Part shown: one piece after another, positions 3,508-21,793 of the stretch
How positions within the stretch are numbered: the first letter of the stretch is position 1
How the letters are laid out: every line of letters begins with the position of its first letter
IMG/VR virus record: IMGVR_UViG_3300032162_000179
Span: 1 to 33,526 of that record
Reading direction: 5' to 3' (one strand)
From: a virus
Taxonomy: Duplodnaviria; Caudoviricetes
Length of the DNA: 33,526 nucleotides
The notes under the pieces: generated by a model
What the model saw: only the letters and a program-made list of their open reading frames with translations
What the model was told of the DNA's origin: nothing
The model's database searches: none
Translations under genes and position numbers: made by a program

Positions 3508-3723
3508 TTAAGCTGCGCGGTGTTCAGAACGAGCACCGACCTTGATTGAGTTGTCGAAGCGAATGCCATAACGTTTTTTCAGCTTCTTCCTGATGCGCGA
3601 TGTGGCACGCAGATAGTTAATTACCTGCGAGACGTTGGCGCGATTCTCGCCAATCGCAAGAGCTATCTCGTTTACCTTTAATCCTCGTAATGCGAGGAAA
3701 GCCTTGATTTCGCGTGCGTTCAT
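3508..3723 (-). CDS. Cro/Ner-like HTH protein
   Basis: 71 aa, basic, EIKAFLALRGLKVNEIALAIGENRANVSQVI; divergent from the repressor. Confidence 0.8.
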   Translation of the reverse strand: MNAREIKAFLALRGLKVNEIALAIGENRANVSQVINYLRATSRIRKKLKKRYGIRFDNSIKVGARSEHRAA

Positions 3724-3747
3724 GTCGTATTTTCCAGAGCAACAATC

Positions 3748-3988
3748 GGAACGAATGTTCCAAACAAGGCGAGATATTAAAACAGATGTTGGATTCGGTC
3801 AAGGAAAATCAAACAAGCGTTTCACGGGAAACATTTGCTAATCGCTTCGCTGAATTGTTTAACTTTGCTTCGGCGGCTGAAATAGGACGCAAAATTGATA
3901 TTCCGCACGCTACTGTGAGTAATTATTTGAAGGGCAGAATGCCCGCGCCAGATGTTCTTGTCAAAATTGCAAATCAAACAAGCGTTTC
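3748..3988. promoter_or_regulatory. Putative operators RAAC-N4-GTTY at 3749-3760, 3811-3822 and 3976-3987
   Basis: GGAACGAATGTTCC palindrome plus an exact 18-bp direct repeat AAATCAAACAAGCGTTTC (3806-3823, 3971-3988). Confidence 0.5.
3774..3802 (-). promoter_or_regulatory. Putative sigma70 early promoter (TTGACC-N17-TAATAT)
   Basis: Minus-strand -35 at 3802-3797, -10 at 3779-3774, about 50 bp upstream of cro. Confidence 0.6.
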
Positions 3989-4295
3989 GCTAAATTGGCT
4001 TCTAATCGGTGAGGGTTCAAAATTTTTAACAAAAGAAATAAATCAATCTGGAGCAGTTTCCGAACCGTTTACGCAGCCTTATGCGATTTTTAATGAAGAA
4101 GCTTTGGCGCTATTCATCAGGCGTATAGCACGCGAAGAATTAGAAGATGCTATTAGAGAAGAATACTTTATTGATGCGGCTTCACAGCAAGCTAATGTTA
4201 GAGATATACAGTCAGCGCAGAAGGAATTAGTTGATGATTTAGGCAGCGTCGGCGGCGAGGCTCAAGAAAGAGTCGCAAAGAAAAGGAAGGCGTAG
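3786..4295 (+). CDS. CI-like repressor, XRE HTH domain
   Basis: FANRF...SAAEIGRKIDIPHATVSNYLKGRMPAPDVLVKIA...VSLNWLLIGEG is a classic XRE HTH; start at 3786 is uncertain. Confidence 0.85.
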   Translation: MLDSVKENQTSVSRETFANRFAELFNFASAAEIGRKIDIPHATVSNYLKGRMPAPDVLVKIANQTSVSLNWLLIGEGSKFLTKEINQSGAVSEPFTQPYAIFNEEALALFIRRIAREELEDAIREEYFIDAASQQANVRDIQSAQKELVDDLGSVGGEAQERVAKKRKA

Positions 4296-4298
4296 ATT

Positions 4299-4721
4299 AT
4301 GTTAAGCGGTTTCACACGGGCAGAGCGCGTTCGCGTTCCAGATGTCGGGCAATTAGCAGCCGGATCAACTGTGCTATTTGAGCCGCGCGGTAAAGTCTGG
4401 ATTACACGTCCAGTTAATGCTCGTCCCGGCGATCTGCTTGTCTCGGCACGCATCAGCGGCGATTCTTTACGCAATGATGGCATCCATGATGGAGACCGTA
4501 TTACATGCCGAACAAACTTTGTATTGTCCGAGATTCGTAATGGACGGTTGGTTGTAGTCAAACTGCCGTGTAGTGGATTAGTCGTCAAGCATTTTCATTT
4601 GCAAGAGAATAGGATGGTGCTTCTGCGTTCAGCTAATCCGAAGTATAAGGACTTGCCGTTCGATCTTGACGAAATCGAAATCAAAGCCGTCGTGCTAGAA
4701 AGCACCCGTATATGGGAGTAA
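4299..4721 (+). CDS. Stand-alone S24 peptidase (LexA/UmuD C-terminal-like)
   Basis: VPDVGQLAAG Ala-Gly cleavage site, ISGDSL catalytic Ser, GIHDGD, VVK catalytic Lys, LRSANPKY; own AGGAAGG SD. Confidence 0.85.
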   Translation: MLSGFTRAERVRVPDVGQLAAGSTVLFEPRGKVWITRPVNARPGDLLVSARISGDSLRNDGIHDGDRITCRTNFVLSEIRNGRLVVVKLPCSGLVVKHFHLQENRMVLLRSANPKYKDLPFDLDEIEIKAVVLESTRIWE

Positions 4722-6169: not shown

Positions 6170-6721
6170 ATGTCAAAACTTGTGCCAATCGTGATTCTTG
6201 GAATCTACAAAACGGCAAATGGGCAATTGCCCGCGCACATGGCTCAACTCGCGCCCGACGCCGCCGCGTCGCTCGCCGAAGTCAACGACGAGATTAAACG
6301 GCGCGGCGGCACTCTTCGTTTGTCCGACGCTTATCGTGATTCGGCGATGCAGGCAAAGGCGCACGACGATTATGTGCATGGGCGAAAGACTGCTTACTCG
6401 CCGCCAGCCGGTTCGTCTATGCACGAAGCCGGACGCGCCATCGATGTTGATCTTGCGACGCTCATTCATCCCGGCTCAGTTCCCGCCGGTCACACGCTGT
6501 TCAACGAAAACGAAATCCGCTCGATCTTCGGCGCGCACGGCTGGACGTTCATCGCGCCCGTCGGCAACCCGCACAGCGTCGATGTTGCCGAGAGTTGGCA
6601 TTTTGAAAAAAGAGGCAAGTTCGCGGAAGTCTATGACAAGACGCTGAAAGACACGCTCGATCACAAAGCCGCCTACCGCGCGATGACGCGCGCGGCCATC
6701 GCCGATTTATCACACAACTAA
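6170..6721 (+). CDS. Endolysin, peptidase M15 family
   Basis: SDAYRDSAMQ, SMHEAGRAID (SxHxxGxAxD) and ESWHFE (ExxH) zinc motifs. Confidence 0.9.
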   Translation: MSKLVPIVILGIYKTANGQLPAHMAQLAPDAAASLAEVNDEIKRRGGTLRLSDAYRDSAMQAKAHDDYVHGRKTAYSPPAGSSMHEAGRAIDVDLATLIHPGSVPAGHTLFNENEIRSIFGAHGWTFIAPVGNPHSVDVAESWHFEKRGKFAEVYDKTLKDTLDHKAAYRAMTRAAIADLSHN

Positions 6722-6758
6722 TTTTCGGATTTTATCGAAGGCATCTGAAGGAGAATTT

Positions 6759-7568
6759 ATGCGGAGGCTGATTGTTATCTATCATCTGTGCGCGGCGTTT
6801 GCTCATTCGATCACGCGCTCGAAACTGATTTCGGTTCTCGGTTTAGTAACAGTGGTGTTGAGCGCAGTCAATCCGCAAGTCTTTGTCGGTCACCCGCGCG
6901 TACAGGCGCTGCTGGTCACTATTGGCTCTGTCGCCGCCGCGCTCGGTCGCGCATTGCTCGCGTCGAGCGTCCCGCCGCAACCAGACCGCGTATCCGGCGG
7001 GCAAAGATTACGGAGCATTGTGCCGCTGCTTTTCCTCGCGCCGCTGCTCGGTCTGGCCTTCCTCTCGTCAGCTTGCGACAAGGATCAACTGCACCGCGCG
7101 GCAGTGGCCTCTGACCGCATGGCAAGCCTCGTATCTGTCGGCATCGATCTCAAACGCGAACTGCGCGCCGAGGACAAGATTGACGACAGCAGCGAACTCG
7201 AACTAACGCGTGATTTGCTTGATTTGAACACGGCCGTGACGCTGCTGAACGACCACGCGCGCCGCTATCAAACCTTCAACGCGACAGCGCAGGGCGATCT
7301 CAAACAAGCGTTCAGCACGGTCTCGCTGGCCTTTGCTGCTTTTGCCAACGATACGACGCTGCACATCAAGAATCCGGCAGCGCAGGCCAGACTCGCGCCC
7401 GTGCTCGCCAGCATGAGAGCCGCGATGTTTATCATCGGCGCGGTGCTCGGCAACGATTCACTGCGCAAGCCTGCTCCCGTACACACGATTGACCCGCCGC
7501 ACGGCCCCATCGCAGGCGGCACTGAGGGCGTCCGGCAAGTTCTTTCCTGTGGAGGCGTTTATGTCTGA
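6759..7568 (+). CDS. Holin-like membrane protein with internal lipobox (holin/spanin candidate)
   Basis: AAGGAG SD; two N-terminal hydrophobic helices, third helix ending LSSA-C106, helical C-terminal domain; follows the endolysin. Confidence 0.6.
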   Translation: MRRLIVIYHLCAAFAHSITRSKLISVLGLVTVVLSAVNPQVFVGHPRVQALLVTIGSVAAALGRALLASSVPPQPDRVSGGQRLRSIVPLLFLAPLLGLAFLSSACDKDQLHRAAVASDRMASLVSVGIDLKRELRAEDKIDDSSELELTRDLLDLNTAVTLLNDHARRYQTFNATAQGDLKQAFSTVSLAFAAFANDTTLHIKNPAAQARLAPVLASMRAAMFIIGAVLGNDSLRKPAPVHTIDPPHGPIAGGTEGVRQVLSCGGVYV

Positions 7569-8294: not shown

Positions 8295-8804
8295 ATGAAG
8301 CAACGCATTCTAATTGTCGAAGATTTCGAGCCGTCCGCCGAACTGCTCCGCGTTTGGTTGAGTAGTCTCGGCTTCGTTGTTGACGTTGCGCCGGGAGGCT
8401 GTGAAGCCCTCGCGCTGCACAAAGCGGCACGCGCCGAGCACCGCGATTACAGTGTGATTGTGCTCGACTTGGCGATGCCGGAGATGGGCGGCTTTGAGGT
8501 CGCTGAAAATATACGATTGACCGACACGGATATTGAAATCGCAATCTGGTCGGCAAACGTTGATTCGCTCGGCATCGCCCGTGCCGCGTTGCTCGGCATC
8601 ACGGAGATCATGCGCAAGCCGACTCCTCTGGAGCAGATAGAGTCCGCAATCAGGCGCTGCCTTGAGCGAAGTCGAGGGAATCTCGTGGATAAACAAAGTA
8701 AGTGTCCAAAATGTGAGCAAATCAATAAAGCGCAAACCGGCGAACATCCGTGCGAAGAATGCGGGTTGCCAATTCTTCATGATGAGAAAGTGAATGACAC
8801 CTAA
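8295..8804 (+). CDS. CheY-like response-regulator receiver with C-terminal Zn ribbon
   Basis: ILIVED, VIVLDLAMPEMGG, IWSA, RKP: all conserved receiver residues; CPKC-x13-CEEC at the C-terminus. Confidence 0.9.
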   Translation: MKQRILIVEDFEPSAELLRVWLSSLGFVVDVAPGGCEALALHKAARAEHRDYSVIVLDLAMPEMGGFEVAENIRLTDTDIEIAIWSANVDSLGIARAALLGITEIMRKPTPLEQIESAIRRCLERSRGNLVDKQSKCPKCEQINKAQTGEHPCEECGLPILHDEKVNDT

Positions 8805-9370
8805 TGCCGCGCCCGTATTCAACGGAAGCTATAGAAGAATGCCAACGCCTCTATTTGCGCTTCAACGGCCAGCACCATGATCGCATCGAGCGGCAGATGC
8901 GCCGGACATGGCCGGGCTGGTCAAAGCAGAATTTGTACACGCGCGGCGCGGGCGCGAACAAGAAAATCGGGTGGATTGAAAAATACGGATGGGAAAAGTC
9001 GCTGAAGCTGCATCTGGCGAGCCGTCCCGAAGCAACGCTCACATCTGCCGAAAAAGTCTTCAATGAGATCGAAGAGATCAGACAGAAGATTTACGAGCAG
9101 ATTAAAACTGTCGGGCCGACAGACCGCGATCTTATTTACCAGCACCGCGATTACAGCAAGCTGTCAATCGACGCGCTGAACAAGATAACCGGCGCAGGCC
9201 ATACCTTTGAAAACTTTGTGGCGATGTGGGAACGCCTGCTTGATTGGCTGCCGGACATTGATGAGCGCGCGGCCACCGCGCTTTTGAAAGTCGCCGATCA
9301 GGTAATCGAAAAGGCTTCTGCTGAATATGGCAAACAGGAAACCAACAGCAGCGGAAGCGCAGGTCGGTAG
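8804..9370 (+). CDS. Terminase small subunit (putative)
   Basis: N-terminal HTH-like segment, WIEKYGWEK, helical remainder; overlaps the large terminase. Confidence 0.65.
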   Translation: MPRPYSTEAIEECQRLYLRFNGQHHDRIERQMRRTWPGWSKQNLYTRGAGANKKIGWIEKYGWEKSLKLHLASRPEATLTSAEKVFNEIEEIRQKIYEQIKTVGPTDRDLIYQHRDYSKLSIDALNKITGAGHTFENFVAMWERLLDWLPDIDERAATALLKVADQVIEKASAEYGKQETNSSGSAGR

Positions 9371-11135
9371 AGCAAAGGCGGCGACGGAACGCGCCCGCGC
9401 CCGGCTCTCTACCCAAACGGGAACAGCGGACGAAATTGATATTACGCGCGCCTCGCTTTCATGGTGGCGCGCGCGATGGGCGGATCAAGCTATCCGCCGA
9501 CTGTTCATTGAAAACTTCATCTGGATACGAGATGCGTTCGATGAGAACAAGCTGACGCTCTTGAAGTTCAACGATTTTCAGGCAGACCTTCACCAGAAAG
9601 TTACAGGCCGCGACGCCATTGTTAAGTTCCGGCGCGGCGGCTCATCTACTTATTGGAAAGCTGCTGACTTCGCTGACGCTGTTGTGCTCGAAGGCTGCAA
9701 CGTGCGCGTTGTGCCGCAAGACCCTGACACTGAAGAAGGATTTCGCGCCGACATTAAGACGATGTACGAAAACCTGCCCGACCATTTGCGACCCGGCGTG
9801 CGGCAATGGACGGATCGATTGATCTGGTTCACCAATGACAGCCGGATCGTCACGGCGACGGTGCAGCCCGGACATGAACAAAAAGGGCGTGGTCAAACAA
9901 TCAGTCGATTGTTTCTCACTGAAGTTCCGTTCTGGCGCGGCAATCAACGCAAAGCAGCAACCGCTTTGATCGAAGCGACGGCGGGCGGGCAGGTCGCGGT
10001 CGAAAGCACACCATTCGGCATCGAGTGGTTTCATTCGATTTATCAGGACGGTAAGACGAACAAAGGCGGCTGGACTTCGCACTTCTACGAATGGTGGTGG
10101 AAACGCGAATACAGAATCGAAGGCGCGCAGATAGCGCGCGTCGAAAAGTCTTGGGTGTTAGTACAGCCCGGACAATCAATCGAAGACTTTTCTTTTCCGG
10201 CAGAAGGCAGCGGTTCGGAGAAAATCACAGCGTACAAGCAATTGCTCAATCAAGTTCTGTCTGTGGCCGAGCGCGTCGTCGCCGTTAAGGTTTTACGCCA
10301 CTTACTCAAACTCGGTTATGTGCCTGCGCGCACAAAATGGTTCGCGCCGGAAGTCGCGGCTTACATTGCATGGCGCAGAGGCAAGATCGGAGAGTTGCCC
10401 GGCGGCGAACAACAGTTCCAAGTCGAGTATCCCGAAAACGATCAGGATTGCTTCGAGCAAACAGGCCGTCCGGTTGTGAAGGCCGAGTATTTGAAAACAA
10501 CCTGCGAGCCTTCGGACGCAGTGTTAGGACGCGAATACGCAATCGGCTGCGATACGAGCTTGGGACTTGAGAGCGGCGATCCGGCGGCAATTGAAATCAT
10601 TGAGGTGCATACCGGACGCCAAGTGTACGAAGAAACGTTAAAGCGCCAGCCGGACTTGCTGGCTGATCGTCTTGCGGAACTCTCTGATCTTTATAACGGC
10701 GCGCTGCTCGTCGTTGAACGCAACGGCCCCGGCATCGCGACAGTCAGGAAGCTGCTTGAAATGGGCTATGAAGATCGCGTTTACCGTCATCTCGATGCGC
10801 GGCTGCGGCGAGCGGTTGAAGACAATCGATTGACGCTCGATGAAGCAATGGAGCAGGCGCAGCATGGTTTCCCGACCAGCACGGAAACAAAGCCGCTTGC
10901 GGCGATGGAGTTAGAGCGCGGACTGCGCACCGGCGCACTCGGTCTTTCAAGTCAGGCGTTCTGCGATGAAGCGAGAACGGTGGTGTGGTTTGACAACGGA
11001 AGTTACGGCGCGCTGCCGGGCTATCACGACGACAGATTTATGGCGCTCGCGATTGTCTGGCTGGTAGTGCGAACAACCGTCGGCATGTTCACAGGATTTG
11101 TGGGCTGCCTGCCCGAGTCAGGATACGCCCGTTAG
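9327..11135 (+). CDS. terL: Terminase large subunit
   Basis: IVKFRRGGSST (Walker A), GRGQTI, LFLTE (Walker B), VESTP, IGCD, VERNGPG and HDDRFMALAI nuclease motifs. Confidence 0.92.
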   Translation: MANRKPTAAEAQVGRAKAATERARARLSTQTGTADEIDITRASLSWWRARWADQAIRRLFIENFIWIRDAFDENKLTLLKFNDFQADLHQKVTGRDAIVKFRRGGSSTYWKAADFADAVVLEGCNVRVVPQDPDTEEGFRADIKTMYENLPDHLRPGVRQWTDRLIWFTNDSRIVTATVQPGHEQKGRGQTISRLFLTEVPFWRGNQRKAATALIEATAGGQVAVESTPFGIEWFHSIYQDGKTNKGGWTSHFYEWWWKREYRIEGAQIARVEKSWVLVQPGQSIEDFSFPAEGSGSEKITAYKQLLNQVLSVAERVVAVKVLRHLLKLGYVPARTKWFAPEVAAYIAWRRGKIGELPGGEQQFQVEYPENDQDCFEQTGRPVVKAEYLKTTCEPSDAVLGREYAIGCDTSLGLESGDPAAIEIIEVHTGRQVYEETLKRQPDLLADRLAELSDLYNGALLVVERNGPGIATVRKLLEMGYEDRVYRHLDARLRRAVEDNRLTLDEAMEQAQHGFPTSTETKPLAAMELERGLRTGALGLSSQAFCDEARTVVWFDNGSYGALPGYHDDRFMALAIVWLVVRTTVGMFTGFVGCLPESGYAR

Positions 11136-11351: not shown

Positions 11352-11390
11352 AATCCGCTTCGACTGGCGCGAGGCTAATCGAAGCGGATT
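11352..11390. other. Long hairpin AATCCGCTTCGA...TCGAAGCGGATT in the terL-portal gap
   Basis: Perfect 12-bp inverted repeat; no U-tract on the plus strand. Confidence 0.8.
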
Positions 11391-11433: not shown

Positions 11434-12933
11434 ATGAGCATTTTAGAGCGATTAAAATTTGCATGGGCAAGCCTATTTACAATAGGCGGCAATGAATTGC
11501 CCGAAGGCGGACGCTCGTCGCAGGAAAATGTTGGCGGCAGTTTCTCGAACTATCTTTCGCGTTACGGCTCTGTATCACCCGTCATCAACTTCGAGATGCT
11601 GGCGGCGCTCAAAAATCTTTATTTGTACAACCCGGATGTGAGCCAGTACGTGACGAACATCGTCAATCTCGGCAACACGGGACACAAACTGCAAATCGCC
11701 GCCCAATCTTCAACTGCTGAAGCTGCCGTCGCGCGACTTAATGAAGCAGCGACGCGCATCTATCTGCACGGCGCGGGCGTGGACGGTTTGATAAATCAAT
11801 ACCTGACGCAGATCGCGTGGTCAGGCGCATTGTCCAGTGAAGACGTTGTGAATTTCGGTGGACGGCGCGTTGAAAAGGTCGTCATGGTTCCGGTTGAATC
11901 AATCAGGTTTCGCTATTTAGACGGCGAGTATAAGCCGTTTCAAAAAACGAATCGCTTTGACCGTAAAGCGTCTGCCGGAGATTCACCGGGATTGATACCG
12001 CTGAATCCGTTTACATATCAATATCTCGCTCTCTCGACAATTGAAAATTCGCCATACGCAAAGCCGCCCGGGAGCGCCGCCGTCGAAGCCATCATTGACG
12101 TTCAAAAGCCGATTCTGGATAACGTCAAATACATCGCCAAGAAACTGGGCATTTTAGGACTCGTGACCGCGCTCGTAACTGCGCCGCCCAAACGTCCGGG
12201 TGAAACAGATGACGAACATCAAAGTCGAGCGAAGAAATATCTGGCAGCCGTCCGCGATTCGCTGACGGGAAACTTCAGCAACGGGCTGCTCGTCGCTTAC
12301 CGCGACTACAAATTCGAGCATACGAATGTCTCGGCTGGAGCGCAGGGCGCATACGACATCAACCGGATGTCCGAAGAACAAGTGATGTCGGGCTTGGGAA
12401 TGCAGCCTGCCTTCTTCGGTCGAACGGATAGCACAACGGAAACATACGCTGATGTCGTTTACAACCTGCTGCTCGCGCTCGTTTTCAATATGGTGCGACT
12501 GGCGAAACGGCGACAAGAGCAGACATATCGTCTTGATTTGCGGCTCGCGGCAATCGAAATCGACAGCGTGTCTTTAGCTTTCAACAAAGCGCACTCGCGC
12601 GATCCGTTGAAAGAAGCGCAAGCCGATGAGTCGCGCGTCCGCACGGTGCTTTTGAAAGTCGAAAAAGGCGTCATCTCGCCGGACGATGGAGCGCAAGAAC
12701 TAGGATACGAATCTGCTTACGACCCGGAATTGATGACAGCAAATCCGAGTTTGGCGAGCGCGCTGCAAGCCGTCAGTTTTTCGCCCGATATGAAGCCGAC
12801 AAAAATTCTCAATTTGCGTTTCAACCGTGAATCGCAAAAGTACGTTTACGTGCCGGATGTAATTACGCTCGGTGCAGGCAATGACAAACTTAGTGGTTCG
12901 ACTTCAATCGAATCACTAAAAAAAAACAATTAA
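11434..12933 (+). CDS. Portal protein
   Basis: 499 aa after terL; SPYAKPP...A, EQVMSGLGMQPAFFG and GVISPDDGAQELGY are portal-like motifs. Confidence 0.85.
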   Translation: MSILERLKFAWASLFTIGGNELPEGGRSSQENVGGSFSNYLSRYGSVSPVINFEMLAALKNLYLYNPDVSQYVTNIVNLGNTGHKLQIAAQSSTAEAAVARLNEAATRIYLHGAGVDGLINQYLTQIAWSGALSSEDVVNFGGRRVEKVVMVPVESIRFRYLDGEYKPFQKTNRFDRKASAGDSPGLIPLNPFTYQYLALSTIENSPYAKPPGSAAVEAIIDVQKPILDNVKYIAKKLGILGLVTALVTAPPKRPGETDDEHQSRAKKYLAAVRDSLTGNFSNGLLVAYRDYKFEHTNVSAGAQGAYDINRMSEEQVMSGLGMQPAFFGRTDSTTETYADVVYNLLLALVFNMVRLAKRRQEQTYRLDLRLAAIEIDSVSLAFNKAHSRDPLKEAQADESRVRTVLLKVEKGVISPDDGAQELGYESAYDPELMTANPSLASALQAVSFSPDMKPTKILNLRFNRESQKYVYVPDVITLGAGNDKLSGSTSIESLKKNN

Positions 12934-13874
12934 CGGAGGCACAAATAGATGAAATTCTCGACCGGTTTATCGAACAGTATCAAGGCGGCGTCGCTCGTTA
13001 TGGCGCTAATGCTGTCAATCTGTTGCTCGAACGTCTTCGCAGATTCCTGCGCGAAAGCAAATACGACGACTTCAAAAGTGAAAGCGACTTTGCCGAGCGA
13101 GCGTTCGGCGCACTCGGCGACGAGCTTCGCGCCGCTTGGTCGAGCGCAAGCGCAATCAATGCAATCAATCGCGCAACAAAATCAATCTACCGATTTTACC
13201 GGCTCAAAGACCCGACGCCTTTCGGCGACAAATCTCCCGTCAGATTACGGTTCGGCGGCCCGGACACCCGGTCAGTCAAATTCTTCGGCGAACTCGACCA
13301 TTTTTACTTTTCAAAATTTGCGCCGAACAAATCCGACGAACTCAAATCCTTTTTACGAGAACGCTATCTCGAAAACGGTTCAAAGCTTTTCGGCCAGCGA
13401 ACGCCCGAAGAACTCAATGACTTCCGTCAAGCTGCCGGAGACAAACTTAAAAATCTCTCAGACCGGTCAATCGAAACAATTATTCATACGAGCGTTCAAC
13501 GAATCAGAAGTTGGGGGCATGTCGGCTCAATGGCGCAAGCTCGAATTAAGTTGGCGCGCATCGTTGCCATTCTCGACAAACGCACCAGCGACATTTGCCG
13601 CGAACTCGATGGCAAGATCATTCGCATTGGAACTGCGCAGGCCGCCATTGAACGCCTCAACGCACTCGAACCCGGCGACTTCGCTGTGCAGATGTATGAA
13701 TCGAATATGGGTAAGGCGATTTCAAGAGACCCCGTCAACTTCATAAAGGGATTTATCGAAGAAGACGGGAAAACTATTTCAGATGATTTGGTGACAACTG
13801 GGCGAGCCGTACCACCTTTTCATCCCAGATGCAGGTCGCGTCTAGCCGCTGTGATTGCGGGAAGCAAGTCTTGA
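12924..13874 (+). CDS. MuF/SPP1 gp7-like head morphogenesis protein; no good start, probably reached by -1 shift from portal
   Basis: AILDKRTSDICRELDG and PPFHPRCRS are MuF signatures; the frame is open from 12894 and reads as natural protein from the A9 run onward. Confidence 0.85.
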   Translation, partial: KQLTEAQIDEILDRFIEQYQGGVARYGANAVNLLLERLRRFLRESKYDDFKSESDFAERAFGALGDELRAAWSSASAINAINRATKSIYRFYRLKDPTPFGDKSPVRLRFGGPDTRSVKFFGELDHFYFSKFAPNKSDELKSFLRERYLENGSKLFGQRTPEELNDFRQAAGDKLKNLSDRSIETIIHTSVQRIRSWGHVGSMAQARIKLARIVAILDKRTSDICRELDGKIIRIGTAQAAIERLNALEPGDFAVQMYESNMGKAISRDPVNFIKGFIEEDGKTISDDLVTTGRAVPPFHPRCRSRLAAVIAGSKS

Positions 13875-14528
13875 AAATTCGTGAGGAAGTTTAACTGACT
13901 TGCGTAGGTTGCAAGAAGCGCAAAGGACTTGCAGGTTTTTTGCCCAATTAGTGCCGCCTCTGGATAAAGGAACGACATGGTCAACGTGGAAAACATTATT
14001 CAAATCCACTTCGCAATAAGCACATTTGCCTTCTTGCTTTTTGTAGAGAGATTTAATGTCTTCGGCAGTGTGGAAACCTTCAGCGTTTCTTTCTCTGGCG
14101 CGACGGCGATGCTTGTTAGTTTTGTTTTGGGCTTTGTATTCGATGGTTTTTCGATACTCCGCAAGACAAGATTGGCAAACTCCATAATAACCATCTGCAC
14201 AGCCAGCGTGTTTTCTGAAATTGTCAATCGGTTTAACCGTTTGACAACCGCTACATCTTTTCTCAGTTCTACTGATGTAGCTCCCTTCAGTCCTACGCTT
14301 GTCGCGTTGAGTTTTCATTCTTTGCTGGATTTTTTCTTTATCGCGGGCATAACGCTTTTGCCACTTTCTTTGTGCGGTTTCAGGATGTCGTTTAGCAGAC
14401 TCGGCAAGTGCATTTCGGAGGCAAGGCTTGCATCGCGGATTCAAGCCATCATAGCGAGAACGGTCAACACCAAATTCAAAAACAGGTTTGGCTTGTTCAC
14501 ACTTCCAGCAAAGTTTGAATCGTTCCAT
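13842..14528 (-). CDS. HNH endonuclease with two N-terminal Zn-finger repeats
   Basis: CAYC...HVDHVVPLSRGGTN...NLQVLCASCNLRK; two KxCxxC...CxxC repeats; AT-rich and antisense to the late operon. Confidence 0.92.
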   Translation of the reverse strand: MERFKLCWKCEQAKPVFEFGVDRSRYDGLNPRCKPCLRNALAESAKRHPETAQRKWQKRYARDKEKIQQRMKTQRDKRRTEGSYISRTEKRCSGCQTVKPIDNFRKHAGCADGYYGVCQSCLAEYRKTIEYKAQNKTNKHRRRARERNAEGFHTAEDIKSLYKKQEGKCAYCEVDLNNVFHVDHVVPLSRGGTNWAKNLQVLCASCNLRKSVKLPHEFSRLASRNHSG

Positions 14529-14556
14529 AACAATCAAATTTTAGCATAGGAAAGAA

Positions 14557-15786
14557 ATGAAACACGGAATCATCATGCTCGGCGCGAACCGCGCGAAGAT
14601 AAATTTATTGGCACACATCCCGGCGCACGCACCCGACGAAAAATCGGCGAAAGCTCTAAGTAATGCGTCGCTCTGGTTCTTTGAAGGTAAGCACGGAAAA
14701 GCGCAAGCCAACGTGCAGGTGCCGACGGGCAAACTCGAATTAACCGAAGACCGCTACGTTTACAAAGACTTTCGCGCGATCTCGCAAATCTTTCTCTCGA
14801 ATCGCGGGCTGGATTTTTCACGTCCGGGCGTTCTCGAAGCAGCGGTCGATATGCTGAAAGGCAAAACGATTTACGCCAACCATGATTTCAGCGACATCGA
14901 CAACTGGCGCGGCGTGATCGCTGATTCGTTCTGGGACAAGGAAGGCAAAGATGCTGGCGGCGTTCCCGGCATAAATGTCACGACAAAGGTGGATGCGTTT
15001 CTAAATTACAGAACCGCGTGCGGCTTGATGATGACTCCGCCCGCTATCAATTCAGCCAGCGTAACAGTCGTGACCGAAGTCGAGTTCTCGCACCTTGATC
15101 TAGTCAAAGACGGCACGTTCTGGGAAAAGTTTTTAGAAGAAGCTGACGGCGAGATTGTGCGGCTGATCGTCACGCGCGTTATCGAGTTTTGGGAGATGAG
15201 CCTTGTCTTTATGGGCGAAGACCGTCTGGCGAAGAATTTGCCGTCCGATGAAGCGGACGATGCTCAAACGACCGACGAAAACTTACAGGCTGAAGCAACA
15301 CGCGCGCGTCACTTAGCCGCGTCAAAACTAAATGCAACGGAGAAGAAAATGAAAGTAACTCAGGAACAAAAAAACTTGCTCGGCATCACTGCCGAAGGCG
15401 ACGACGTGCCGGAGCAAAATGTTTTGGACGCGGCATTGTCATTCGCCACAAAAGCGAAAGATGTTGATCCGATCAAAATCGCAGAATTATCGGCTGCCGC
15501 CAAACAAGGCGAAACGCTGCTCGGTGAAAAGCGCAGGGAAGTAACGCGCCTCGCAACGTTATCCGAACTCGGATCGGAAGAAGGCACACTCAACGAAGTC
15601 CTTGCCGGGACAATCAACAAAGCGACGGCTGAAGAACTCGTCAATCTCGAAACCTACTATCGCGGCAAAGTGGGACACAAACTCGGCGTCGGTCGCAGTT
15701 CGATGGAGAACAGCGACGAAGTAGAAGCGGCAGGCGGCGTGAAGAACAGCGCGCAGCCATTCGTGTCAACTGGCGGGCTGGTCTAA
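14557..15786 (+). CDS. Prohead protease/scaffold protein
   Basis: Position between MuF and capsid; ANHD, SASV and WEMSLV protease-like motifs; acidic linker then helical C-terminus. Confidence 0.7.
   Translation: MKHGIIMLGANRAKINLLAHIPAHAPDEKSAKALSNASLWFFEGKHGKAQANVQVPTGKLELTEDRYVYKDFRAISQIFLSNRGLDFSRPGVLEAAVDMLKGKTIYANHDFSDIDNWRGVIADSFWDKEGKDAGGVPGINVTTKVDAFLNYRTACGLMMTPPAINSASVTVVTEVEFSHLDLVKDGTFWEKFLEEADGEIVRLIVTRVIEFWEMSLVFMGEDRLAKNLPSDEADDAQTTDENLQAEATRARHLAASKLNATEKKMKVTQEQKNLLGITAEGDDVPEQNVLDAALSFATKAKDVDPIKIAELSAAAKQGETLLGEKRREVTRLATLSELGSEEGTLNEVLAGTINKATAEELVNLETYYRGKVGHKLGVGRSSMENSDEVEAAGGVKNSAQPFVSTGGLV
15349..15786 (+). CDS. Nested in-frame scaffold protein (internal start)
   Basis: GGAG-aagaaa-ATG in frame within the protease, after the linker (MKVTQEQKNLLG...), as for Mu I/Z and lambda C/Nu3. 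Confidence 0.6.
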   Translation: MKVTQEQKNLLGITAEGDDVPEQNVLDAALSFATKAKDVDPIKIAELSAAAKQGETLLGEKRREVTRLATLSELGSEEGTLNEVLAGTINKATAEELVNLETYYRGKVGHKLGVGRSSMENSDEVEAAGGVKNSAQPFVSTGGLV

Positions 15787-16229: not shown

Positions 16230-17441
16230 ATGTCACACGGATTAAAAGGAAAAGTCAGGGAAATGGTGACGCGTATGGATGCGCGTCGCCAGCAGGGAGA
16301 GAACATCAGTCTGCGCGGATTGATGGCGGAAACGTATAAAGACGCGAGCGGCGCGGCCTTGCAGCCGGAACACTTGTTCGCGGAACTCGGCATCAACCCG
16401 CAACGCACGCAGTTACAGGAACTCTTCCGCGAAGAGGACACTCGCTATCTGGCGGCGGAAATTATTCGCAACGGCGTGCGGCGCGGAATGGGACTGGCGC
16501 AGCGCGAGCAGCTTCAGGCGCTTCGTGATCGCGCAATGGCAGCCAGCCTAGCACCGACAACAGGCGAACAAGCGGGCGGGCAGCGTTTTATCTCCCCGGA
16601 AGTTTTCACCGATCCGGTCATGCGCGGCGCGGTGCAAAGCACGTTTTATCCCGATCTGGTCGTGCGTGAAGAAACCGTCGCGCAGCCGCAAGTCGTGATT
16701 CCGCGCATCAATTTGGCGGATGCCGTGCTGAAGGATTCCGGCGAGGCGGCGACCATCGAAGAAGGCTCGATTAGTTACGACACGAAAACCGTAACGATCA
16801 AGAAAAAAGCGCGCGAAATTAAAATGACATACGAAGCGATCCAATTTTCTTCGCTCTCGCTTGTGCAGTTGTTCATGGAAGATGTCGGGCGCATTTTGGG
16901 TCACACCTTAAACGGAATGGCAATCGAAGCCATTATTCTCGGCGACCAAAGCGATTTGTCCGAAGCGGCGGCGGTCGTCGGCGTCGAGGATACAACGAAG
17001 GGCATACAGTGGTTCGACATCGCGCGGGCGGCGATTCAGTTCGGATTGCTCGGACGCAACGGAATGCAGGCCATCGGCAACGCGACGAGCGCGCTCAATT
17101 ATTTGAATTTGCCGGAAGTCAAGAACAAGCAGTTTCCAGGAGCGCCGCTCTTGGCGACGATGCTGAAATCTATGATGACAATGCCGGAGGAGCTTTACGT
17201 TTCAACGAAAGTCCCCGCTTCGCAAATTGTCCTTCAAGACCCGTCCATATCGCTCGTCCAATTAACGGCAATTCCTCTCATGGTCGAAACCGAACGCATC
17301 ATCTCTAAGCAGATCCTCGGCTCGGCTGTGTCGATCTACACCGGCTTCGCGAAATTGCAGCGCAATGCGTCGGTCGTGCTGGACGGCTCGATCTCGTTCG
17401 CCGCAAATGGCTTCCCTGTGTTTATGAGTCCGCTCGCCTAA
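16230..17441 (+). CDS. Major capsid protein
   Basis: 403 aa, strong SD; GEAATIEEGSISYDTKTVTIKKKAREIKMTYEAI is an HK97-fold-type segment. Confidence 0.88.
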   Translation: MSHGLKGKVREMVTRMDARRQQGENISLRGLMAETYKDASGAALQPEHLFAELGINPQRTQLQELFREEDTRYLAAEIIRNGVRRGMGLAQREQLQALRDRAMAASLAPTTGEQAGGQRFISPEVFTDPVMRGAVQSTFYPDLVVREETVAQPQVVIPRINLADAVLKDSGEAATIEEGSISYDTKTVTIKKKAREIKMTYEAIQFSSLSLVQLFMEDVGRILGHTLNGMAIEAIILGDQSDLSEAAAVVGVEDTTKGIQWFDIARAAIQFGLLGRNGMQAIGNATSALNYLNLPEVKNKQFPGAPLLATMLKSMMTMPEELYVSTKVPASQIVLQDPSISLVQLTAIPLMVETERIISKQILGSAVSIYTGFAKLQRNASVVLDGSISFAANGFPVFMSPLA

Positions 17442-20549: not shown

Positions 20550-21380
20550 ATGTCAGACACAGCCCCAACCGAAATGCCGAGCGAATCCAAACTGCTTTTC
20601 GATGCCGACGCCGAGCAGCGCGTCGAATTAACTTTGCGGCGTACTGATAACGGCGGCAAAGTCAAAAAGAACCGCGTCGCTCACATCTTTCGTCCGATGA
20701 CGGATGAAGAATTTTTTCAATACGAACAGAAAAAGAGCATCGTCCAGAAGATCAGCGGGACGAACATTGTGAACGTGCGGACGCAGGATAAGAATTTGCA
20801 GGCCGCAGAATGGCTGTGGAACGAAGTTGCAGTGGGACGCACTGGTTACGTCGAGCGCTCCGATTGGCGTGAAAAAACCGATCTGCTCGATAAACATACC
20901 GCAATCAAGGACGGTCTGTTGGCGGTTTTCCCGGCAACAGATTCCAACACGGATATTTTCGATGATTCCACGCTCGACGCCGAAATGCTCGTCGAAGATG
21001 ACGACGAGTTTTCTGACGAATTGGTGGACGAAGACGCGCAGACAATCGTGCGTCTCGACTGTCTGTTCAATTCTCAAGCGATTACTACAACGCATTATTT
21101 TGCGGCTCCTTCAGCCAAAGATGTAACGGATTACGAAAACTTTATGAAGAAGGCCAGCAATATGATGGACGGGCGCAAAGGGTGGCGGCAGAAGAAAGCG
21201 AATCAGACTTCGCAGATTTCAATTCCGTCGAAGGCGCGCGAACTGTGCGGTTTGTATGATCGCTTGATTATCAAGCCGGAAGGTTATGTGGGACGAGTTC
21301 CGGCGCATCACAAGCGCGAAGCTGTGCTGGAAATCTTCACGCGCGAGGCGGATGTGAACGAGGGAAACGAGGGAAACTAA
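20550..21380 (+). CDS. Tail assembly chaperone (G-like)
   Basis: Acidic protein between tube and tape measure, ending at G-GGA-AAC slippery heptamers. Confidence 0.75.
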   Translation: MSDTAPTEMPSESKLLFDADAEQRVELTLRRTDNGGKVKKNRVAHIFRPMTDEEFFQYEQKKSIVQKISGTNIVNVRTQDKNLQAAEWLWNEVAVGRTGYVERSDWREKTDLLDKHTAIKDGLLAVFPATDSNTDIFDDSTLDAEMLVEDDDEFSDELVDEDAQTIVRLDCLFNSQAITTTHYFAAPSAKDVTDYENFMKKASNMMDGRKGWRQKKANQTSQISIPSKARELCGLYDRLIIKPEGYVGRVPAHHKREAVLEIFTREADVNEGNEGN

Positions 21381-21793
21381 CACAGCTTGCGCCGTTCGTT
21401 TTGGCAAGAGTCAAAAAGCTCTATGAGGCGAACGGCGGCGCAAGCACAAATTCAATTTGTCCGGGTGAAGAAGCTTGCGAAGACTTTGCGGCGGCAGCGG
21501 GCGTAACGCGCGAAGAAAAATGCGAGAACGTCTGCGCGGGTTGTCATCTTCTCGCAACCAAAATTCAGAACATAGAATCGGTCATCGGAGAAGATGAAGC
21601 GGAAATCTATATCGCAGAAGTCGAGCAAGTGCGTCGGACGCGAGATTCCGGCGCGGGGCTTGATTTAACGACGATCAGCTTTTTGACGTGGCGGCTGCTT
21701 TTGATTTACGACGATGCGGTTGAAGCCTATGAGCGTGATTTGCGGTTATATGCCAAAGCATTGTTCGAGGCGTTGGCGGCGAGAGGAACTTGA
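21371..21793 (+). CDS. Tail assembly chaperone -1 frameshift extension (T-like)
   Basis: -1 frame is open from the slippery sites to TGA 21793; no SD of its own; Cys-rich (C-x5-C ... C-x3-C-x2-C). Confidence 0.75.
   Translation, partial: GKLTQLAPFVLARVKKLYEANGGASTNSICPGEEACEDFAAAAGVTREEKCENVCAGCHLLATKIQNIESVIGEDEAEIYIAEVEQVRRTRDSGAGLDLTTISFLTWRLLLIYDDAVEAYERDLRLYAKALFEALAARGT

Follow-up and report, generated by a model that had tools for sequence, protein, structure and literature searches.

Recoding on a run of identical bases has been described for T. thermophilus dnaX: passages of PMC5009743 state that nine A or T residues slip efficiently and that slippage on nine A (A9) reaches about 50% full-length product in this gene, and parts of PMC3711429 report two-ORF dnaX genes (ORF, open reading frame) with A9-A10. 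For phage structural genes, passages of PMC5009743 and PMC6316719 describe ribosomal frameshifts, as in lambda G/GT, SPP1 gp17.1*/gp17.5*, A2 and PSA and in the capsid extensions of T3 and T7; the word 'portal' is absent from the first 300,000 of the 449,034 characters of PMC5009743. The MuF protein of SPP1, gp7, binds the portal and DNA, is present in 1-2 copies and is dispensable but aids infection (passages of PMC5576092 and PMC6316719), and parts of PMC7302621 describe constitutive portal-MuF fusions in the Microbacterium clusters EA3/5/8 and EB. Here we analyse the virus record IMGVR_UViG_3300032162_000179 (the window, by which we mean this whole stretch of 33,526 nucleotides), in which a portal gene and a MuF-like reading frame meet at an A9 run. 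Judging by its conservation among relatives, this junction is very probably, and with high confidence, a real site of programmed recoding; a further frame, here called ORF X, is nested within MuF.

The portal-MuF junction and its relatives

The portal gene ends with CTA AAA AAA AAC AAT TAA (12916-12933), four bases past A9, and MuF follows in the -1 frame. The features of the junction are:

11434..12933, + strand: portal protein, 499 aa; phrog_3753 (E 9e-84), Foldseek matches to the lambda, HFTV1 and T4 portals
12918..12926, + strand: candidate A9 slip site, starting at the wobble position of CTA, a rare Leu codon; read in the sequence, in runs X3 and X4 and in relatives
12918..13874, + strand: MuF-like minor head domain, read in the -1 frame and lacking its own start codon, which would form the C-terminal part of a predicted 813-aa fusion; PF04233, phrog_241
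12935..12939, + strand: Shine-Dalgarno-like GGAGG, 9 nt ahead of ATG 12949; read in the sequence
12949..13746, + strand: nested ORF X, 265 aa, 28.8 kDa, pI 10.6, in the portal frame (+1 to MuF), entirely within MuF

Reading the sequence again bore out what a first-pass annotation of this DNA had described, namely A9, the portal end and a MuF frame without a canonical start: the -1 frame is open over 12894-13874, after TAG 12891-12893, and its first NTG codon is TTG 13023, with no ATG, GTG or TTG before it. One A added to the run computes to a portal-MuF protein of 813 aa and 90.2 kDa, in agreement with the fusion of ~813 aa and ~90 kDa that had been predicted beside the 499-aa portal, and one A removed leads to a stop after 8 codons. 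A9 is the sole A or T run of nine or more in the whole window; 0.9 such runs are expected there by chance, which makes it unremarkable at that scale, as against 0.001 in the 40-nt overlap of the two frames. A run length of A10 or A7 would have pointed to a homopolymer error, but contigs from two further sequencing runs, X3 (12780-13178) and X4 (12842-12992), carry the same A9, with no gaps and no other letters. Both differ from run X1, which may be the source run of the window and also has A9.

The upstream gene is identified as a portal by its phrog_3753 profile, by its position between terminase and protease and by a fold model that matches the portals of lambda, HFTV1 and T4 (Foldseek best E 1e-9; TM 0.44 to the lambda portal); Pfam and sequence searches of the PDB gave no match. 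Its last ~24 residues are predicted to be disordered (AlphaFold predicted local distance difference test, pLDDT, <50 at 476-499), and this tail is predicted to act as a linker within the fusion. The MuF frame, directly downstream of the portal, matches PF04233 Phage_Mu_F with 30.6 bits against a cut-off of 29.6 and phrog_241 with E 3e-18. Its residues 1-180 match unnamed Atlas clusters (0.94) and a cluster (0.92) that has PF06152 on 31% of its members and can serve as a lead only.

Relatives were drawn from three collections and comprise 115 loci in 85 clusters at 90% portal identity, 54 core and 31 distant. L001 (L numbers designate loci), the one weak locus returned by a single-protein locus search of viral contigs, has no portal and was dropped; L002, identical to the window, 8 truncated loci and the distant, unclear L037, L049 and L050 were likewise left out, and L003 and L076 were reassigned by hand owing to upstream indels. 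Among the 54 core clusters, 38 have MuF in the -1 frame (31 with A9, 6 with A10, 1 with A8) and three in the +1 frame (2 with A8, 1 with A9); two are fused in frame with A10, one is fused without a run, seven have no MuF and three are truncated. Conservation of the run, which the first-pass annotation had proposed to look for, was indeed found: A8-A10 stands at the junction in 43/44 MuF-bearing core clusters versus 0/7 MuF-less ones, whose portals reach A5 at most over the final 90 nt. In five of these seven, the protease is reached within 208-821 nt downstream of the portal; the absence of MuF from L108 is a weaker call, its downstream sequence being just 1048 nt long. The 37 loci that were called -1 automatically comprise 371,149 nt, without any A9+ run besides those at the junctions; in two of them, L065 and L071, the -1 frame becomes open only within the run, which pins the site of the shift.

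On a quick tree (76 rows, with support from the Shimodaira-Hasegawa-like approximate likelihood-ratio test, SH-aLRT, only; 9/85 clusters left out for short portals), MuF was lost in at least three places, and the run-less fusion L101 is nested among -1 lineages. The 31 distant clusters are mostly constitutive run-less fusions (19, plus 2 mixed), and in a distant branch associated with spirochaetes A9/A10 stands in frame in L033, L092 and L094 and at -1 in L093 and L095; A9/A10 also occurs at in-frame junctions in the L016 group and L070. At unrelated MuF loci (38 distinct, with an early ATG of their own; L122 is a fusion), a junction run of A7 or more is found in 0/30 that have an upstream gene. 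A search for longer proteins, with a length window that leaves out fusions of ~810 aa, returned 3 fusions of 895-924 aa, and the cultured Bacillus phage CUBc25 has a 754-aa portal-minor head fusion gene without the run.

Two further observations concern the ends of these portals. In the distant in-frame fusions L084, L038 and L040, A9/A10 lies in the portal-MuF linker and both shifted frames stop 6-50 nt further on; sister lineages have no linker run. A Lys-Lys motif stands within 10 residues of the C-terminus in 108 of the 120 portal homologues listed out of 291, and the short portals of the relatives P0002-P0120 mostly end in Lys-Lys-Lys and an Ala-rich tail (KKKAA, KKKAQQA), the portal of the window ending in KKNN. 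Such tails resemble C-terminal protease degrons.

A reading frame nested in MuF

ATG 12949 lies 15 nt past the portal stop, is preceded by GGAGG with a 9-nt spacer and opens 265 codons. Over MuF codons 10-200, the corresponding +1 frame of the 37 -1 lineages has 0.12 stops per 100 codons (37 genes, 6922 codons), compared with 3.55 in the portal (37 genes), 3.53 in the terminase (32), 3.9 in the protease (32) and 4.32 in the capsid gene (25) of the same loci. Since single control genes reach 231-258 open codons, it is the recurrence of the open frame that constitutes the evidence for ORF X; a figure of 205.6 expected stops versus 0 was not used, its spans having been picked after the fact. An ORF of 199-296 codons starting with ATG is present in 35/37 -1 lineages; one more is cut by the contig end, and L061 lacks it. 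Three -1 lineages found later (L206, L208, L215) all have ORF X, and L199 gave no match when further lineages were sought.

The start codon is conserved as well. Its ATG requires GAT or AAT followed by G in MuF, that is an Asp or Asn codon (GAT background 0.46), and it occurs at the homologous Asp/Asn codon in 33/36 lineages with ORF X versus 0/6 without; one of the three exceptions is an alignment offset, and the other two use nearby ATGs. A Shine-Dalgarno-like 4-mer is located 5-17 nt upstream in 27/35 of the ORFs.

The encoded protein would consist of an N-terminal hydrophobic segment (residues ~13-31) and a disordered tail rich in Ser, Thr and Arg. The best 19-residue hydropathy within the first 60 residues averages 2.14, versus 0.54 in synonymous recodings of the same MuF genes, with p <= 0.05 in 35/36 lineages as against 0/35 and 0/35 in two sets of control windows; it is <=0.8 in the seven loci without ORF X that were tested. 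To judge from these recodings, the hydrophobic segment is under selection, and ORF X likely encodes a membrane-targeted or exported protein. An Atlas model of it has a pLDDT of 0.33 and no match, and six ORF X proteins have no PHROG match.

Two candidate explanations of ORF X were rejected. Stop-codon readthrough from the portal would meet a second in-frame stop before the ATG, in the window as in many relatives. Spanins (Rz/Rz1) are encoded in or near the lysis cassette and have a conserved lipobox, or a transmembrane segment plus a periplasmic coiled coil; ORF X lies in the head module, has no conserved Cys in the alignment, a disordered model and no PHROG match.

Probable mechanism of the shift and possible role of ORF X

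RNA-polymerase slippage is the mechanism we favour, with moderate confidence, because the run of nine occurs in three codon phases together with rare codons and because ribosomal stimulators are absent. The first-pass annotation had left the choice between ribosomal shift and polymerase slippage open, and the data lean to the latter. Run lengths in the 37 -1 lineages are 9 (30), 10 (6) and 8 (1), in the codon phases 2, 1 and 0, so that 36/37 have 9-10 A; slippage of the T. thermophilus dnaX type calls for nine or more A/T, whatever the codon phase. All 29 phase-2 lineages begin the run at the wobble position of a rare ATA, CTA, GTA or TTA codon, versus a background of 5-8%. Lys-Lys-Lys is dispensable, as the plain portals of MuF-less phages and the fusion L101 do without it. 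A hairpin 3' of the run reaches z <= -2 in 0/37 lineages (0.41 in the window; the folding model covers hairpins only), and an internal Shine-Dalgarno-like element 5' of the run is found in 3/37 only. A hairpin before the run reaches z <= -2 in 9/37 (mean -0.76), a result from a crude shuffle on which we do not rely.

The same two products could arise by -1 ribosomal frameshifting on A_AAA_AAA or A_AAA_AAG(C), as in lambda G/GT or E. coli dnaX. This we consider unlikely, though it is by far the most serious competitor, and both processes could act jointly. In-phase heptamers (A_AAA_AAA, A_AAA_AAC) are present in the window, A_AAA_AAA occurs in phase in the relatives across all codon phases, a G follows the run in 34/37, and a classic G_GGA_AAC site is found at the tail chaperone of this phage. 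In addition, according to parts of PMC3711429, orthologs that differ in the direction of the shift indicate slippage and a uniform direction indicates programmed ribosomal frameshifting; the direction here is -1 in 38/41 non-fused core clusters, which by that criterion suits the ribosome. Three clusters are +1, two of them likely under-calls, and two core clusters have A10 in frame, an arrangement also compatible with a dnaX-type -1 shift to a stop. We had considered the +1 layouts as proof of slippage and mostly rejected them, as L014 and L076 keep ORF X and look like under-calls by one A, leaving L054 alone. Yet a heptamer requires 6-7 A, whereas 36/37 lineages carry 9-10 in three phases, and 3' structure and 5' Shine-Dalgarno element are both missing. 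Unstimulated heptamers in E. coli shift at 2-10 times a background of 0.055% (passages of PMC4066793), that is below ~0.6%, which would be too low for one MuF per 12-mer, although the host is not E. coli and the figure may not transfer.

Replication slippage at the level of DNA, flipping whole genomes between a split and a fused state, is improbable. The in-frame A10 and the A8/A9 +1 versions among relatives would fit such phase variation, and poly-A is slippery for DNA polymerase as well (PMC3711429, in part); however, A9 is found in all three runs that span the site (contigs drop rare variants), the start and the stop-free frame of ORF X are fitted to the -1 state in 35/37 lineages, and the in-frame A10 state is stable over 5 loci of one cluster.

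Slightly less probable again is that MuF is an ordinary separate gene, whose start is a non-canonical Ile codon downstream of GGAGG or else TTG 13023, with the A-run incidental. GGAGG does lie ahead of ATA 12945, as the first-pass annotation had pointed out, at a distance of 5 nt, a Shine-Dalgarno-like 4-mer precedes the Ile codon in 27/36 lineages, and two loci, L061 (without ORF X) and L111 (with it), have an ATG overlapping the portal stop (TGATG), L099 having a TTG; these possible starts count against recoding, but all three loci keep A9-A10, L061 and L111 having A10. As a Shine-Dalgarno sequence, GGAGG suits ATG 12949 better, which belongs to the nested ORF that the annotation had missed. 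The Ile codon varies (ATA 16, ATT 13, ATC 6, GTA 1; 36/37 lineages matched), the first NTG of the MuF frame is scattered from residue 4 to 259, so that TTG 13023 is not conserved, and from residue 4 onward MuF gives a gap-free alignment with its counterpart in the in-frame fusion L101 (46% identity over 310 aa). These three findings make independent initiation, for which we found no conserved start, unlikely. Moreover, the L-T/S-E-E-I-D motif ahead of the Ile belongs to in-frame fusions, the run tracks the presence of MuF among core clusters, and the distant loci with an early MuF ATG of their own have no A7+ junction run (0/30 of those with an upstream gene).

Finally, an assembly artefact of a constitutive fusion with a true A10, conceivable insofar as homopolymers are error-prone and in-frame A10 relatives exist, can be dismissed, given A9 in two further runs, A8-A10 in 43/44 MuF-bearing lineages, the -1 layout of 38 core clusters, which come from many assemblies, and the existence of in-frame fusions.

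Under polymerase slippage, a transcript that has gained one A would encode the 813-aa portal-MuF fusion, while from unslipped transcripts ribosomes would make the 499-aa portal and then, probably by re-initiating at the Shine-Dalgarno sequence and ATG that lie 15 nt behind the stop, ORF X. On slipped mRNA, ribosomes running through MuF would occlude ORF X, so that the ribosome output would be either portal plus ORF X or portal-MuF. That slippage on A9 makes this choice is a reading we hold with fair, not strong, confidence. By analogy with SPP1 gp7, fusion subunits would co-assemble with plain portal and bring MuF into the head. Translation of ORF X, whose product would end at the membrane, would most likely also keep most of the otherwise untranslated ~950 nt of MuF under ribosomes on unslipped mRNA; Rho polarity as the reason for such cover is our own suggestion.

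Recoding into a portal-MuF fusion, as proposed in the first-pass annotation, is well supported by the comparative evidence; its further claims of a minor product and a fixed MuF copy number are not, since 7 clusters of close relatives are devoid of MuF, another relative (L101) has it constitutively fused, and slippage on A9 can amount to ~50%. The fusion need not be the minor product, and tolerance of 0% and 100% fusion among relatives would be in line with the dispensability of SPP1 gp7.

Several findings count against the picture drawn here. The lineages are akin, so that the cluster counts are not independent events. The slip layout occurs without ORF X in L120, L061, L093 and L095 (-1) and in L054 (+1), and L111 combines ORF X with a coupled MuF ATG; no ORF resembling X was found in MuF-less loci. 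Wobble conservation beyond codon 40 of the overlap is 1.11-1.20, the same as in the portal (1.05-1.20), and the tail is variable in length (199-296 codons) and unconstrained in sequence. As a ribosome cover, ORF X would not extend over 74-362 nt of MuF, and the next gene in this window is an antisense HNH gene. What speaks for ORF X is its absence from every fused lineage (L101, the L016 group, L070, L079) and from L061, which has its own coupled MuF ATG. The slip layouts without ORF X (L120, L093, L095, L061), together with L111, suggest that it is a later addition, and it looks like an overprint in a clade of Blastocatellia phages. The selection visible on it in the alignments appears to be limited to openness, start and N-terminal hydrophobic segment.

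The odds are about even between ORF X as a filler that carries an export signal and ORF X as a genuine protein of exclusion, lysis or assembly tethering. Given the slip, we put a functional late membrane protein (for superinfection exclusion, lysis control or as a portal-assembly tether) just short of an even chance. A pure ribosome-cover filler would need no signal, whereas the selected hydrophobic segment is found at two positions in two sub-clades (residues ~11-33 or ~25-50), a signal-peptidase-like S-Y/C/F-A motif follows it in 12/35, and Cys, Trp and Met are mildly depleted. On the other hand, the unconstrained tail, the lack of a family or fold, the disappearance of ORF X whenever MuF is fused or lost, and the location of the endolysin and of a gene with transmembrane segments and lipobox elsewhere argue against such a protein. 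More tentatively still, the junction may be a three-product switch, in which the slip picks 'portal + X' or the fusion per transcript and ORF X arose de novo, overprinted as the slip freed its frame, to serve as membrane tether in the assembly of the portal ring or as polarity guard.

Genomic setting and comparison with known systems

The window is a 33.5-kb virus record that encodes a CI-like repressor, terminase, portal, MuF, protease, capsid and a 1907-aa tape measure. Portal relatives of 48-63% identity are found in Blastocatellia/Pyrinomonadaceae genomes, from which we take the host to be an acidobacterium. The remaining genes around the junction are:

9327..11135, + strand: terminase large subunit; phrog_2 (E 7e-12)
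13842..14537, - strand: HNH endonuclease, inserted between MuF and protease; phrog_1035
14557..15786, + strand: head maturation protease; phrog_8158 (E 9e-26)
16230..17441, + strand: major head protein; phrog_3922 (E 2e-23), PF25209

The HNH endonuclease is missing from a related phage contig in run X6, where 13804 is joined to 14555, and by this comparison it is a recent insertion in this window. Antisense and in register to it lies a 190-codon ORF (13977-14549, +) with an AAGGA Shine-Dalgarno sequence, ending 7 nt before the protease; it may be due to chance, as in-register antisense, or a further cover ORF. A perfect 12-bp inverted repeat (11352-11390) is placed within the 300-nt terminase-portal gap, and related contigs of runs X5 and X6 have a similar left arm with a different loop. 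A promoter and terminator scan of the window stayed at chance level, with none on the + strand. The stretches 6170-7568 and 8295-8804 contain a VanY-type endolysin, behind which comes a gene that has a lipobox-like motif and two hydrophobic segments, and, upstream of the terminase genes, a lone response-regulator receiver domain. The CI-like repressor is split into a helix-turn-helix ORF (3714-4295, +) and a peptidase-like ORF (4299-4721, +) in the same frame with one stop between them, and both halves match adjacent portions of phrog_4. ORF 20550-21380 (+) ends GAG GGA AAC GAG GGA AAC TAA, with two tandem G_GGA_AAC heptamers (21362-21380); the ORF that follows in the -1 frame (21401-21793, +), just ahead of the tape measure, suggests a common tail-chaperone frameshift of the G/GT kind, unlike that at A9.

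In our searches of the open-licence PMC and bioRxiv literature we found neither portal-MuF recoding nor a gene nested in MuF. Two supplement files of PMC3711429 contain no portal or MuF term, a GeneTack portal cluster being possible in file 1, beyond the part searched; in parts of PMC10885494, MuF appears among the PRFect 'false positives', linked to VIP2 fusions. Annotation misses or mis-calls ORF X, with MuF starts called anywhere and lengths of ~200-390 aa for most matches.

The junction is similar to T. thermophilus dnaX in its run of nine, which in dnaX puts extra A's into the mRNA, and in a short and a long product with a common N-terminus (passages of PMC5009743 and PMC3711429). It differs in that phage head genes are concerned, that the slip would mostly make the long product, that a gene is nested in the skipped frame and that the extra A's are a prediction. 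In Shigella flexneri mxiE, too, slippage gives an extended product and affects downstream gene expression (passages of PMC5009743 and PMC9769918); mxiE encodes a regulator, not a virion protein. The frameshifts of phage structural genes would share with the portal-MuF junction the outcome, a fixed ratio of a short and a C-terminally extended virion or assembly protein from one gene, but they are ribosomal and affect tail or capsid genes. It is from these genes that programmed recoding has been known in phages, and a case at the portal was not found in the literature named above.

As in SPP1 gp6/gp7, MuF lies directly downstream of the portal; unlike there, and unlike in constitutive fusions, the two are joined only via the A-run, neither separate nor fully fused. 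To our knowledge, SPP1 is the only phage for which it is known how a few MuF/gp7 copies, which elsewhere come with toxin or enzyme cargo, enter a head whose portal has 12 subunits; there it occurs by binding. A fusion made by slippage would be a covalent route for MuF into the head, with a tunable ratio, and the portal-MuF family presents the whole series of separate genes, slip, full fusion and loss.

Lambda Rz1, nested inside Rz, is likewise a membrane-targeted protein encoded in the +1 frame within another late gene. ORF X differs from it in its place in the head module, its length of ~265 aa, its disorder and the lack of a conserved lipobox, and in that its expression would exclude that of the host frame through the slip. 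We know of no nested ORF in mxiE. ORF X would be a rare, datable gene that arose by overprinting and was gained and repeatedly lost in step with the slip state, and a three-product switch, if real, would mean that one recoding site sets the stoichiometry of portal and cargo and also brought forth a nested gene that it controls. Compared with what has been described, the locus adds the portal-MuF gene pair to a known mechanism and an apparently unreported nested gene that is tied to the slip state.

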